Source: Deltaproteobacteria bacterium (GTDB taxonomy: Bacteria; UBA10199; SPLOWO2-01-44-7). From it: a DNA stretch of 43,910 bases. Both the position numbers and the translations under genes were made by a program. The DNA is taken from contig JACRBV010000062.1 of assembly GCA_016213065.1 (NCBI GenBank), forward strand, positions 1-43,910. Reading direction: 5' to 3'. The notes under the pieces are model-generated. The model saw nothing but the letters and a program-made list of their open reading frames with translations. It was not told where the DNA came from and ran no database searches. Shown here one piece after another: positions 29,329 through 40,607 of this stretch (the stretch's first letter is position 1; each line of letters starts with the position of its first letter).

Positions 29329-29739
29329 TCAAATGTTGTTCTTGGAAATCCACTTTTCAATCATCGCGATCAGGTCTTCACTGCGAAAGGGTTTGGCAAG
29401 ATAATCATCGGCCCCTGTTTCAAAGGCTCTTTTTTTGTCTTCTTCACCGGCCCGTGCCGTTAAAAAAATAACGGGAATTTTTTTGAGTTTTTCGTCAGCC
29501 TTGATTCTTTCTGTGGCGGCATAGCCATCCATCACGGGCATCATCACATCCATAAGGATCAGATCAATGTGCGTAATTTCCAAGAGTTGCAGGGCTTCAA
29601 GACCATTTTCAGCATAAGCGACATCATAACCCAAAAACTCAAGACGGGCCCTGATTGTCTCCGCCAGAAAAAATTCATCTTCAACAATCAAAATTGTTTT
29701 ATCAAGTTTGTTTTTCATATTGAATTTTTGAACGGTCAT
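29329..29739 (-). CDS. Single-domain response regulator (CheY-like receiver)
   Basis: ILIVEDE, LILMDVMMP and PVIFLTA..........KP motifs. The alternative start is 29718. ATG 29739 lies inside repeat unit GTCAT. Confidence 0.9.
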   Translation of the reverse strand: MTVQKFNMKNKLDKTILIVEDEFFLAETIRARLEFLGYDVAYAENGLEALQLLEITHIDLILMDVMMPVMDGYAATERIKADEKLKKIPVIFLTARAGEEDKKRAFETGADDYLAKPFRSEDLIAMIEKWISKNNI

Positions 29740-29804
29740 TCCCGCGAAGGCGGGAATCCAGCCCGTTTTAATAGCGACTGGATCCCCGCTTTCGCGGGGA
29801 TGAC
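29735..29804. repeat. Two inverted 27-nt hairpin units of the repeat family
   Basis: GTCATTCCCGCGAAGGCGGGAATCCAG (29735-61) and CTGGATCCCCGCTTTCGCGGGGATGAC (29778-804). Confidence 0.85.
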
Positions 29805-29824
29805 ATTATTAAAAGCAAAGGTAC

Positions 29825-34250: not shown

Positions 34251-34373
34251 TGAAAAATATCATTCCCGCGAAGCTTGTCCCTGCAGGTAGTAGGCAGGGA
34301 GCCGGAATCCAGTAATGAATCGCTGGATCCCTGCCTTCGCAGGGATGACAAAAAATACATTTTTCAGCACTCC
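34251..34373. repeat. MITE-like copy with nested hairpin and truncated left TIR
   Basis: TGAAAAATATCATTCCCGCGAAG[CTTGTCCCTGCAGGTAGTAGGCAGGGAG]CCGGAATCCAG ... CTGGATCCCTGCCTTCGCAGGGATGAC ... CATTTTTCAGCACTCC. This is a near-copy of 40609-40743. Confidence 0.8.
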
Positions 34374-35884: not shown

Positions 35885-37012
35885 ATGATTGAGCTCCCCT
35901 CCTCAAAAAGCATTACTCATCGCGCGTTGATTTGTGCCGCGTTGGCCTCTGGTAAAAGTGTGATTTTGAATCCGCTTGTTTGTGATGATACGATGACAAC
36001 GTGTGATGTGCTGGAAAAACTGGGGATTCAGATTGAAAAATCTGCACAGACTTGGGTTGTGCGTGGTGGCAATTGGATACGGGAACTGGATTCCCGCTTT
36101 CGCGGGAATGACAAATCAGGGATTTCTAGAACTGTTCTAAACTGCAACGAATCGGGGACGACGTGGCGCTTTATCACGGCGCTAACCTCTTTTTTAAAAA
36201 TTCCGTGTGAAATTACCGGAAAAGAATCACTCCTTCAAAGACCCATCAAACCCTTATTGGAAGCTCTTCAGTGCGCCGATGAAACAATTTTTCTTAATGG
36301 AAATGTCAGTTCCCAATTTCTCTCGGGCGTTTTGCTCGTGGCGCCTCTGTCCGATAAACCTCTTACAATTAAACTCACCACACCGCTTGTTTCAAAACCT
36401 TATGTGGAGTTGACCCTTGATGTGCAGAAAAAATTTGGAATAAAAATTAGAACCAAAAAAAATTTCTCAGATTTTTATATAACACCGCAAAAATATCAAC
36501 CCACGAAAATGGAGATTGAAAAAGACTGGTCGTCCGCCGCATTTTTTATTGCCGCGGGTCTTTTGTCAAAACCTCTCACACTGACAAATCTTAATCCGAA
36601 AAGTTTGCAGGCAGACCGCGCAATTGAAACCATTGCAAAGGAGATGGGGGGGGAACTGGAGTGGAACGGAAATGATCTGAATATTTTTCCCTCAAAACTG
36701 CGGGCGATCGAATGGGATATCAAAGATTCCCCCGATCTTTTTCCGATTGTTTCTGTATTGAATGCGTGCGCGGAGGGAAAAGGCAAACTCACAGGCATTG
36801 AAAATCTGAAATTTAAAGAATCCAACCGATTGAAAACAATGCAAAAACTTTTAAAAAACCCGAACGTCATTGATTCAACAGACCACCGCATCATCATGGC
36901 TGGCGCGGTTCTGGGGTTGGCGCACAAACAAACACCCAAAATCCTGCACCCTTCATGCGTCTCCAAATCCTTTCCCAATTTTTGGACGGCCTTCGACAAG
37001 ATTAGAGCGTAA
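35885..37012 (+). CDS. aroA: 3-phosphoshikimate 1-carboxyvinyltransferase (EPSP synthase), short form, carrying an in-frame repeat insertion
   Basis: LPSSKSITHRAL, NESGTTWRF, KESNR, and DHRIIMAG...SKSFPNFW signatures. 375 aa. Confidence 0.85.
   Translation: MIELPSSKSITHRALICAALASGKSVILNPLVCDDTMTTCDVLEKLGIQIEKSAQTWVVRGGNWIRELDSRFRGNDKSGISRTVLNCNESGTTWRFITALTSFLKIPCEITGKESLLQRPIKPLLEALQCADETIFLNGNVSSQFLSGVLLVAPLSDKPLTIKLTTPLVSKPYVELTLDVQKKFGIKIRTKKNFSDFYITPQKYQPTKMEIEKDWSSAAFFIAAGLLSKPLTLTNLNPKSLQADRAIETIAKEMGGELEWNGNDLNIFPSKLRAIEWDIKDSPDLFPIVSVLNACAEGKGKLTGIENLKFKESNRLKTMQKLLKNPNVIDSTDHRIIMAGAVLGLAHKQTPKILHPSCVSKSFPNFWTAFDKIRA
36086..36112. repeat. Single 27-nt hairpin unit of the repeat family inside aroA
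   Basis: CTGGATTCCCGCTTTCGCGGGAATGAC. It encodes LDSRFRGND and is 9 codons long, so the reading frame is kept. Confidence 0.85.
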
Positions 37013-37187
37013 TATCTCTATCCATCACGGTCTTACGGCCTTCTTGTTTGGCGTGTTCGATCGCCTGATCGATTGTCTTCTTCAACACCGCAGTTAAGGC
37101 TTCGAAAGAATTTCCCGAAGTATTCATGTCGGCTTTTTCTTTGATGTACTTTTTGACCTTGGAGGCCACAACCAGAACTTCACTCAT
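37002..37187 (-). CDS. Bacterial histone-fold protein (singlet, Bd0055/HBb-like)
   Basis: 61 aa: MSEVLVVASKVKKYIKEKADMNTSGNSFEALTAVLKKTIDQAIEHAKQEGRKTVMDRDITL. It has the GRKTV..RDI signature of the histone L2/alpha3. AAGGAG lies 7 nt upstream. The 3' end overlaps aroA by 11 nt. Confidence 0.7.
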   Translation of the reverse strand: MSEVLVVASKVKKYIKEKADMNTSGNSFEALTAVLKKTIDQAIEHAKQEGRKTVMDRDITL

Positions 37188-37198
37188 GATAAGCTCCT

Positions 37199-38119
37199 TT
37201 ATAAAAGGACCGTTTCGAAGTGGCTCAACACTTTGAACCCCTGAAAGCGATCATTAATTTCTTGTTTGGTTAATTGACGCATTCTATCCAATCCAAAATC
37301 TTCCACTTGAAAACTGGCCATCACGGAGCCGCAAATCATGGCTCTCTTCAAGGCGGTTTCACTCAGATCACCATTTTGACTGGCAAGATAGCCCATGAAA
37401 CCACCCGCAAAACTGTCTCCGGCACCAGTCGGATCTTTCAAATCTTCCAGCGGATAAGCCGGCGCGGAAAAAACAGATTCCCCGGTAAACAGCAAGGCAC
37501 CGTATTCACCGCGTTTGATCACAAGAGTTTTTGGGCCCCAACTGCGAATCAATTTGGCGGCCTTCACCAAATTGCGTTCCCCGGCCAATTGGCGGGCTTC
37601 CCCTTCGTTGATCAACAGAATATTCACCTTTGCGAGAGTCTTTTTTAATTCACTTCGTTTGCCGCTGATCCAAAAATTCATGGTGTCCATTGCCACAAAT
37701 TTGGGAGTCTGAACCTGTTCCAAAACCTTGAGCTGTAATTCGGGATCAATGTTGGCCAAAAAGACATGAGGAGATTTTTGAAAATGAGCAGGCAAGGACG
37801 GATTAAACTGGGCGAAAACATTAAGATGCGTTTCCAAAGTCTGGGCTTCGTTCAAATCAAAACCATAGCGCCCTTTCCAATGAAATGTTTTTCCTTCGGG
37901 CTGAATTTGAAGACCTGTGAAATCAACACCGCGGGCTCTTAAAAAGGTGATTTCCCGTTCATCAAAATCGCCCCCCACAACGCCGACTAATTGTACCGGA
38001 GTAAAAAAAGAGGCGGAAGCCGAAAAGTGTGTAGCGGCACCGCCCAGAACCCGATCCTTTTTTCCGAAGGGGGTTTCTAAGTCATCATACGCAACAGATC
38101 CAACGACAAGAATACTCAT
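37199..38119 (-). CDS. PfkB-family carbohydrate/nucleoside kinase
   Basis: N-terminal GG..N-type region and C-terminal DPTGAGDSFAGGF motif. 306 aa. Confidence 0.85.
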   Translation of the reverse strand: MSILVVGSVAYDDLETPFGKKDRVLGGAATHFSASASFFTPVQLVGVVGGDFDEREITFLRARGVDFTGLQIQPEGKTFHWKGRYGFDLNEAQTLETHLNVFAQFNPSLPAHFQKSPHVFLANIDPELQLKVLEQVQTPKFVAMDTMNFWISGKRSELKKTLAKVNILLINEGEARQLAGERNLVKAAKLIRSWGPKTLVIKRGEYGALLFTGESVFSAPAYPLEDLKDPTGAGDSFAGGFMGYLASQNGDLSETALKRAMICGSVMASFQVEDFGLDRMRQLTKQEINDRFQGFKVLSHFETVLL

Positions 38120-38144: not shown

Positions 38145-39182
38145 TCAAGGCGTTGTCAAGGGGACTTGTTTTAGGACTAAAACACGGACCTCTCTTGGAA
38201 GCGAAGTTTCTTTCCATGTAACGACACTTCCATGATAAAAAAGATAACTATCCAGATTTTTATCTCTAAAGTAAAACTCATCCCCTACATAAACTCCTCG
38301 GACATCCACCGCGGGTTCCTTTTTCGTTATAATATCCAACGCTTTAATAACTTTAACCAAGACACCATAAGAAATTTTTCCTGCGTTGTATTGTTCAAGT
38401 ACGGCTTCCAAGACATTCAGCGCCAAAATATTTTGGGAATCCTGAATTCGCTGAACCGTCTTTTTCCGCCACAGTTTAAACCAAAAACCGACAAATCCTT
38501 TATCAGAAAGGAGATCTAATTCTTCACGAATTTTTGCAACTTCACCCAAATACCGGCTGGAATAATTTCCAAAATCAAATTTTTGCCACACGGCCTTTCC
38601 ATGAATATTTGTAATCAAAATCATTTCTGGTGTGCTCGTTTCTGTTCTCACTCTTCTAGCCAATTCTATCTCAAGAGCTTCCCGGGAAGTGGCCACGGCA
38701 AATCGTTGCCCACCCCTGTAAGCCACAGCGGCGGAAAGTTTCGGGTGTTGCGTACGCAAAGATATTCGATCTTTATCCTCTTTATCCATCGCCTCTGTTA
38801 CTCCTACAACACTTCCTGTCGACGGGCTTACCATGCGACCAACGCCAAAGGCCGTAGCCACAACAGCTCGCGCATCTGGATTAAATCGTTGAGTACCCGG
38901 ACTAACCTGAGCTCGCACCAATAACTCCTGAATGCGTGTAGCATCTCGACGGACAAGTTCGTAAACAGTTATCTTGAATTCTCTCCGATCCAGAACACCT
39001 GCCGGGTCTCGAAGCAGAGCAAGAGCCGAAGACAAATCAGTCAAGCCTTCATGATCAAAAAGACCTTCAAGGATAGAAAGTTGCACTTCTGGCAAACTGC
39101 CATCCACAAGAAGATCTGTGAAACCAGCAGGATTGGTAAATGAGGGGAAGGGCGCTACTAAAGCTGAGGGGTCGATAGCCAT
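38145..39182 (-). CDS. Hypothetical protein, 345 aa, no recognisable domain
   Basis: Long ORF with ordinary amino-acid composition, tightly following the divergent promoter region. No motif was recognised. Confidence 0.55.
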   Translation of the reverse strand: MAIDPSALVAPFPSFTNPAGFTDLLVDGSLPEVQLSILEGLFDHEGLTDLSSALALLRDPAGVLDRREFKITVYELVRRDATRIQELLVRAQVSPGTQRFNPDARAVVATAFGVGRMVSPSTGSVVGVTEAMDKEDKDRISLRTQHPKLSAAVAYRGGQRFAVATSREALEIELARRVRTETSTPEMILITNIHGKAVWQKFDFGNYSSRYLGEVAKIREELDLLSDKGFVGFWFKLWRKKTVQRIQDSQNILALNVLEAVLEQYNAGKISYGVLVKVIKALDIITKKEPAVDVRGVYVGDEFYFRDKNLDSYLFYHGSVVTWKETSLPREVRVLVLKQVPLTTP

Positions 39183-39419: not shown

Positions 39420-40607
39420 ATGGAAATTCAAGCGGTACTTGTTGACTCCGGTGTCGGCAACAGCACCATCAACACTTTTTCTGAACGCCTTCAACAATAT
39501 ACCCAAGCGGCTCTTCGCCAGAACGGCGAAGCACAGAGACAAATTTTACGAAGTATAGCAGAGGGATTTTCACAGGCTCATTATGAACAAGCCCGCCCCC
39601 GTCTTTTGGCTGTTTTCCCCGGAACCCACCGGTTTGCCGAGTCAGCACAAGACGCTTTGGACTCGCTGATAACTCTGCCACCCGACAGCAAGCTAATGCA
39701 AATTCTGGAAAGTTTTGATGACGGCAATTATACCCTTCGCTTATACCTGTTCCATCTAAGGGCGAAAAAAGCGCTCACAGAGAACCTTGACCAATTGGAA
39801 TTCTTAAAACAATGCGGCATTGAAAAATTTGAAACGCAGGCCGATGTATTCCGGAAAAAACTGGAAGCTCTGGCAGACCCTGCAAAATTGAAAAGCAGGT
39901 TACCCGAAAAACTTGCGGAGATACAAAAAATCGAAAGAGCTATCGAAGATTTGAATACAAAAGAGTTGAATAGAAGAAGACCCGTCGTAGCAAAAAGAAA
40001 ACCCGCTCCAACTCCCCGCGAGAAAAAACCAAAGGCAAGAGTTGCAACTCCTCCGCCCATTCTGCAACCACCCGTTTCGCAACTTATTCGGGAACTTTTT
40101 GTTTCAGACAATCTCCCCTCCGCCTTACTGCGAGCGTCAACAACGGGCGAAAAGTGGAACACAGTAGAACAAAAAGTCCGCGATATGAGCAAGACTCATT
40201 ATCGAGCAGGTGCTTTTTTTAACAGGGTTCTCAGGGAAGGCAAAGTAAACGGCTGTCTGGCACCAGAGGAAGCATGGGCGCTTTTGGAAAAATATGAAAC
40301 GGCATTGCCCGAAGGAAAAAGCGACGAACTCAACTTATCCTTCGAGCGAATTGTCTATTACCGGGCTCTCACAATAAGAGGCAGGGGACTGATTGAAGAT
40401 GTTATTAAAATGTTGCCAAGGTTCACAACAGGAGAACTATCACTTATTAAGCAACTACGTGATGAATTGTCGGCCACCCTCAAAACGGAAGAGGTTCGCG
40501 ACATCAGAGCGGCTGTCATCAAACTCGAGTTCGCAATAAGAAATCTTGAGGGAAAGAGTGCCGTGTTTGTCAACGGACACTGGAAGTTCTCTCGATTTTC
40601 CAATTAA
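39420..40607 (+). CDS. Hypothetical protein, 395 aa, helical with a central K/R/P-rich linker
   Basis: Long ORF. The linker is RRRPVVAKRKPAPTPREKKPKARVATPPP. No known domain was recognised. Confidence 0.55.
   Translation: MEIQAVLVDSGVGNSTINTFSERLQQYTQAALRQNGEAQRQILRSIAEGFSQAHYEQARPRLLAVFPGTHRFAESAQDALDSLITLPPDSKLMQILESFDDGNYTLRLYLFHLRAKKALTENLDQLEFLKQCGIEKFETQADVFRKKLEALADPAKLKSRLPEKLAEIQKIERAIEDLNTKELNRRRPVVAKRKPAPTPREKKPKARVATPPPILQPPVSQLIRELFVSDNLPSALLRASTTGEKWNTVEQKVRDMSKTHYRAGAFFNRVLREGKVNGCLAPEEAWALLEKYETALPEGKSDELNLSFERIVYYRALTIRGRGLIEDVIKMLPRFTTGELSLIKQLRDELSATLKTEEVRDIRAAVIKLEFAIRNLEGKSAVFVNGHWKFSRFSN

Follow-up and report, generated by a model that had tools for sequence, protein, structure and literature searches.

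Bacterial histones were characterised only between 2023 and 2025, and just two of them, HBb (Bd0055) of Bdellovibrio bacteriovorus HD100 (PDB 8FVX, 8FW7, 8CMP, 9EZZ and 9F0E) and HLp of Leptospira perolatii (PDB 9QT0-2), have been studied experimentally. A short alpha2 helix has been described, as has an S9-K10 motif typical of bacterial histone singlets, and A48 of Bd0055 occupies the place of the tetramer-forming His of archaeal histones, which is missing (Hocher et al. 2023, PMC10627809). The top ten DNA-contact residues of HBb are N22, R57, S9, T53, T8, S24, K10, K12, K52 and K16, and its R51-D58 clamp is supported by D49 (Hu et al. 2024, PMC11317129). Bd0055 has been shown to be highly abundant and to associate with the nucleoid. 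In Bdellovibrio, HBb coexists with HU (PMC10627809), and its mode of DNA binding is disputed between a coating of straight DNA (PMC10627809) and bending (PMC11317129).

Among the alpha3-truncated histones, a "bacterial dimer" category has been defined by sequence clustering (Schwab et al. 2024, PMC11390915). The face-to-face histones, of which HLp and HTkC of Thermococcus kodakarensis (PDB 9F2C) have solved structures, tetramerise via R49, S52 and N53 in HLp numbering, with R49, N53 and R55 being conserved (Hu et al. 2025, PMC12701072); the tetramer residues are numbered R48/N52 in PMC11390915.

The stretch of DNA analysed here (the window; 43,910 nt) is contig C24 of a 1.8-Mb assembly that is 96% complete, and for the small gene of interest in it the computational analysis covered its homologues and fold, the conservation of its residues, the purifying selection on it, its distribution across lineages and the order of the genes around it. 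This gene, found in the list of open reading frames and assigned through its PDB match, AlphaFold2 model, Foldseek results and purifying selection, encodes an HBb/Bd0055-type bacterial histone of 61 aa on the minus strand (37002..37187 including the stop codon); it starts with ATG and its product reads MSEVLVVASKVKKYIKEKADMNTSGNSFEALTAVLKKTIDQAIEHAKQEGRKTVMDRDITL. Six nucleotides 5' of the ATG lies the Shine-Dalgarno sequence AAGGAG (37194..37199, minus strand; read directly from the sequence), the first A of which is the final base of the pfkB stop codon, and an alignment shows an SD-like GGAG before the histone gene in three relatives from the same family as well. The pfkB gene (37199..38119, minus strand; Pfam PF00294, E 4e-27) encodes a PfkB-family sugar/nucleoside kinase and lies upstream on the same strand, with 11 nt from its stop to the histone start; none of the NCBIfam equivalog profiles was reached at its cut-off, and the kinase was not assigned to a specific subfamily. 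From the other side, the EPSP synthase gene aroA (35885..37012, plus strand; TIGR01356 319.8 bits against a cut-off of 287, Pfam PF00275 E 6e-75) converges on the histone gene, and the two 3' ends share 11 nt (37002..37012). An earlier note on this DNA had already proposed the AAGGAG, the 11-nt gap and the 11-nt convergent overlap, all of which agree with the coordinates, and had let the product end on GRKTVMDRDI, an element that is indeed present though followed by the two last residues TL. The pfkB-histone pair is flanked by two open reading frames without Pfam or NCBIfam match, one of 345 aa (38145-39182, minus strand) that stops 25 nt before pfkB and one of 395 aa (39420-40607, plus strand), neither of which was seen near the histone gene in relatives.

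In a phmmer search against PDB chains, the top matches of the product were HBb/Bd0055 (8FVX/8CMP; E 7e-14, 54 bits, residues 1-60), with HTkC (E 1e-6) and HLp (E 6e-6) being 7-8 orders of magnitude weaker. Counted by hand over residues 1-60, 32/60 positions (53%) are identical to HBb/Bd0055, so that the resemblance along the whole length that the earlier note had claimed is real and significant, while its wording as "very close" was somewhat generous. The two Pfam models which that note had named for comparison do match the protein, but both below their gathering thresholds (PF00808, CBFD_NFYB_HMF, 16.3 bits vs 21.4; PF09123, DUF1931, 13.8 bits vs 21.8), with the same sub-threshold outcome in a scan of the whole genome, and the NCBIfam model for the archaeal histone superfamily, at E 1.3e-7, likewise stays under its cut-off. 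Because of these sub-threshold scores, close homologues are labelled "hypothetical protein" in NCBI; the Pfam scores reflect the limited reach of the models and are no evidence against a histone fold.

An AlphaFold2 monomer model built on a 69-sequence alignment (mean pLDDT 89.5) places alpha1 at residues 2-19, alpha2 at 27-48 and alpha3 at 56-60 (5 residues), which gives a predicted histone fold whose alpha2 is short and whose alpha3 is truncated to about one turn. When this model was compared to the PDB with Foldseek, the top five matches were all HBb (TM 0.76-0.79), followed by HTkC and HLp (TM ~0.73-0.76), and every one of the 50 listed matches has a histone fold. The minimal histone fold that had been proposed from the letters is thus corroborated by the sequence match to HBb together with the predicted helix-loop-helix-loop-short helix arrangement. 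The earlier note had made its assignment depend on significant histone similarity and on a predicted histone fold, and since both were found, the assignment stands on both counts.

Given a length of just 61 codons, the overlap with aroA and Pfam scores under the thresholds, the frame could be suspected to be a chance or decaying ORF without product, but the conservation data contradict this reading, which we regard as having practically no chance of being correct. A search of 5.8 billion proteins returned 489 homologues at E<=1e-3, the best of them 85% identical and most of those listed 60-64 aa long, and ten columns are invariant in the alignment of 69 homologues (V7, S9, K10, A46 and R51-K52-T53-V54-M55-D56), including S9, K10 and the whole of RKTVMD. 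Comparison of the window histone with ten relatives from the same phylum gave pN values of 0.13-0.18 against pS values of 0.66-0.91 at saturated synonymous sites, and dN/dS is around 0.05-0.13 where dS could be computed, a pattern that speaks for strong purifying selection on the histone gene; the good Shine-Dalgarno sequence and the confident fold prediction likewise argue against a spurious frame. A second possibility, that the protein is a face-to-face histone of the HLp/HTkC type forming stable tetramers that wrap ~60 bp of DNA, could draw on the significant matches and fold scores that HLp and HTkC also obtained and on the face-to-face-like paralogues found in its phylum and indeed in its own family (G077, G079 and G080). 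However, the match to HBb is eight orders of magnitude better, and two of the three conserved tetramer residues, R49 and N53 of HLp, align in phmmer with H45 and E49 of the window histone, leaving no Arg/Asn pair, whereas the sampled paralogues of the phylum do keep an Arg and an Asn at the same four-residue spacing and are parted from the window histone by a branch with 99% support in the histone tree. On the tetramer residues and the relative E-values we rejected membership among the face-to-face histones, and we consider tetrameric wrapping of this kind highly improbable.

The residues that HBb uses on DNA are kept in the window histone, with nine of the ten contact positions identical and T8 to A8 as the sole change; R51-K52-T53, D58, S9-K10, K12, K13, K16 and K18 are all present, the RD clamp of R51 and D58 is retained with D49 replaced by E49, and position 48 is a Gln instead of the His found in archaeal nucleosomal histones. 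At position 45, HBb has a Ser and about half of the closest homologues have a His. The HBb-like contacts and clamp in combination with the lack of a face-to-face Arg/Asn pair identify the protein as a "bacterial dimer" histone of the HBb type: it has every sequence and fold feature of that category, and the defining feature of face-to-face histones is absent. The gene in the window is a new member of this published and structurally solved family, an assignment to the HBb type that we hold with very high confidence.

A third reading would tie the protein to the PfkB kinase operon as its own regulator or partner, making it a histone-fold transcription factor and not a general nucleoid protein, as might be suggested by the 11-nt gap without a terminator between the two genes and by the retention of this order in four genomes of three genera within the window's family (G000, G077, G078 and G080). 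Yet among 80 named histone loci drawn from one-genome-per-species collections the order recurs at a single one, MGRG01 ("Deltaproteobacteria bacterium RIFCSPHIGHO2_01_FULL_43_49"; the same genome as G080 by matching coordinates), which belongs to the window's own family, and it is absent at the other 79 and in other families of the same phylum among 11 phylum loci compared for synteny. Even within the window's family, one genome (G076) has an unrelated convergent ORF after pfkB. Single-copy pfkB orthologues with 58-76% identity occur in each of the five further phylum genomes searched (58-60% in three other families), and they lie away from the histone gene in the two genomes for which both positions are known and lack a histone gene behind them in a third. 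The histone loci of Bdellovibrionales have a different neighbourhood, in which 35 show a convergent ligA downstream and 29 a metallophosphoesterase-like gene upstream, and the conserved residues of the protein are those with which HBb contacts the DNA backbone non-specifically. Confinement of the adjacency to family f1 makes a functional link to pfkB unlikely and led us to reject a conserved pfkB-histone module; the order looks like a lineage-specific, family-level accident, and a dedicated role in the kinase operon is very unlikely. We thus return to the HBb-type "bacterial dimer" histone, inclusive of inferred dimerisation and DNA bending, as the best explanation and one that is quite probably correct.

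Co-transcription of pfkB and the histone gene is plausible in light of the 11-nt gap, and the histone would then probably be transcribed at least partly from the pfkB promoter. A consensus scan detected no sigma-70-like promoter near the histone gene or between it and pfkB, though a promoter may be embedded within the 3' end of pfkB, and the scan for terminators found none on the minus strand after the histone gene either. A gene lying 11 nt behind a metabolic one, with no promoter predicted nearby, is not arranged as one would expect for a nucleoid protein of very high abundance. Elsewhere in the phylum, other families have a histone gene with an upstream intergenic region of its own, which in family f9 is non-coding and carries a conserved promoter-like TTGATT-17 nt-TAAAnn element; in the stand-alone histone genes of that family (L091 and L093-L095), the sequence GCTTGATTTCAAG..CTTCG...TAA is conserved as a promoter-like block ~55-85 nt 5' of the start. 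Two relatives in the window's family (G077 and G078; loci L089 and L092) show a short hairpin between the pfkB stop and the histone Shine-Dalgarno sequence, CCGCC-AAAA-GGCGG in one and CCGC-TTTT-GCGG in the other, which may possibly serve in mRNA processing or stability or act as an attenuator; the alignment shows no such hairpin before the Shine-Dalgarno sequence in the window and G080.

On the other side of the histone gene, aroA was not found within the fetched histone flanks (1.5-5 kb) of family relatives and sits on other contigs there. Since aroA was missing from the fetched histone flanks of every relative, the overlap is particular to the genome of the window, and we discarded it as a conserved feature. 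The aroA product is unusually short in this family, with 375 aa here and ~307-340 aligned residues (open frames of 322-356 aa) in three relatives (L112-L114), compared to a profile length of 415-417; several internal deletions are shared, and the window copy nevertheless passes the equivalog cut-off of TIGR01356. A palindromic repeat of ~30 nt, TGGATTCCCGCTTTCGCGGGAATGAC, occurs in at least 40 copies across the genome, including positions 29735-29805, about 34330-34360 and, inside aroA, 36085-36112. The aroA copy is in frame, encodes ...SRFRGNDKSG... and adds ~10 residues relative to aroA of the three family relatives, and such a palindromic repeat within a gene resembles the Rickettsia palindromic elements found inside genes.

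The phylum of the window is represented by 93 species genomes in one class, mostly of ~2 Mb. Homologues of the histone (E<=1e-3) are present in 72 of these 93 genomes and in 52 of the 63 of high quality, and around 31 genomes carry the HBb-like type (>=53% identity, E <1e-14), the remainder having more distant homologues. Ten of these weaker matches were sampled. Two of them are ZZ-finger histones, and the other eight are face-to-face-like, each with an Arg and an Asn at a four-residue spacing where alpha2 ends. The face-to-face-like ones (L097-L101 and L104-L106) are ~59 aa long, and the ZZ-zinc-finger histones (L102 and L103, from G025 and G055) are 171-codon frames that join a C4/C2H2 N-terminal domain to an HBb-like C-terminus. 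Some genomes of the phylum carry two histone types together; in the genome of the window, searches with the histone itself, PF00808 and PF09123 found no second histone-fold gene. In a tree built from 64 columns and poorly resolved, the window histone stands among the HBb-like sequences, in a clade made up of members of its own phylum (SH-aLRT 88), which is more consistent with a long presence there than with a recent transfer.

In their main text, the published surveys do not list this phylum with the principal carriers of bacterial dimer histones. It is tempting, though in our view rather doubtful, to see in it a second bacterial phylum after Bdellovibrionota with phylum-wide alpha3 histones, where in one family the HBb-type gene was captured behind pfkB and its own promoter region was lost; if true, this capture could tie histone dosage to a metabolic operon. 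What is new here is only mildly so: alpha3 histones are highly frequent in a small phylum, and one of its families has the gene captured behind pfkB.

As for its function, we infer from homology that two histone chains would pair head-to-tail via their long alpha2 helices to form a histone-fold dimer. This dimer would bind the DNA backbone across the minor groove with the N-terminus of alpha1 and the loops L1 and L2, without sequence preference, and the R51-D58 "RD clamp" would keep L2 in position. Separate dimers could then either bend DNA locally, as in the model of Hu 2024, or coat it at high density, as in that of Hocher 2023, and no wrapping is expected because the tetramer-building residues are absent. 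By analogy with HBb, the window histone is most likely a sequence-independent DNA-bending nucleoid protein, and a nucleoid-protein role, for which some abundance in the cell is presumed, is likely. The earlier note had raised the question of HU/IHF genes, and four of them are present in the genome of the window, beside whose products the histone would work as a general nucleoid-associated protein. Across the phylum, HU/IHF genes occur in 93/93 genomes, usually in four copies, and a role of the histone as a replacement for HU was discarded on these counts.

The locus adds a clear HBb-type member from poorly known, small-genome groundwater bacteria, the close homologues of which are still annotated as hypothetical proteins, and documents a lineage in which alpha3 histones are common and HU is universal. 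Its use lies in annotation and in the choice of further histones to test; the current picture of bacterial histones is unchanged.

Among the known systems, the window histone has in common with archaeal HMfA/HMfB (PF00808) the histone fold, the RKT(V/I) loop and the R-D clamp, but it differs from them in its shorter alpha2, its one-turn alpha3 and Q48 at the position of the tetramer His, and the formation of hypernucleosomes is not expected. With HLp and HTkC it shares the truncated histone fold, the SK motif in alpha1, the RD clamp and a comparable size, and paralogues resembling the face-to-face type exist in sister genomes of its family; unlike these proteins, it has an L2 loop of RKTV as in HBb and not RTTV, RQTV or RATV. 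It departs from HBb itself in A8 for T8, H45 for S45, Q48 for A48 and E49 for D49, in the missing upstream intergenic region of its own and in its neighbours, which are pfkB and aroA here and ligA and a metallophosphoesterase-like gene in Bdellovibrionales, as well as in its host, a member of a small phylum of ~2-Mb uncultured bacteria whose MAGs NCBI labels "Deltaproteobacteria" or "Pseudomonadota". Still, HBb is the protein that it resembles in near-equal length (61 aa compared to 64-66 aa for HBb chains), in the S9-K10 motif, the RKTVM loop and the RD clamp, in a short alpha2 and a one-turn alpha3 as predicted here, in doing without tetramerisation residues, and in sharing its genome with HU/IHF.
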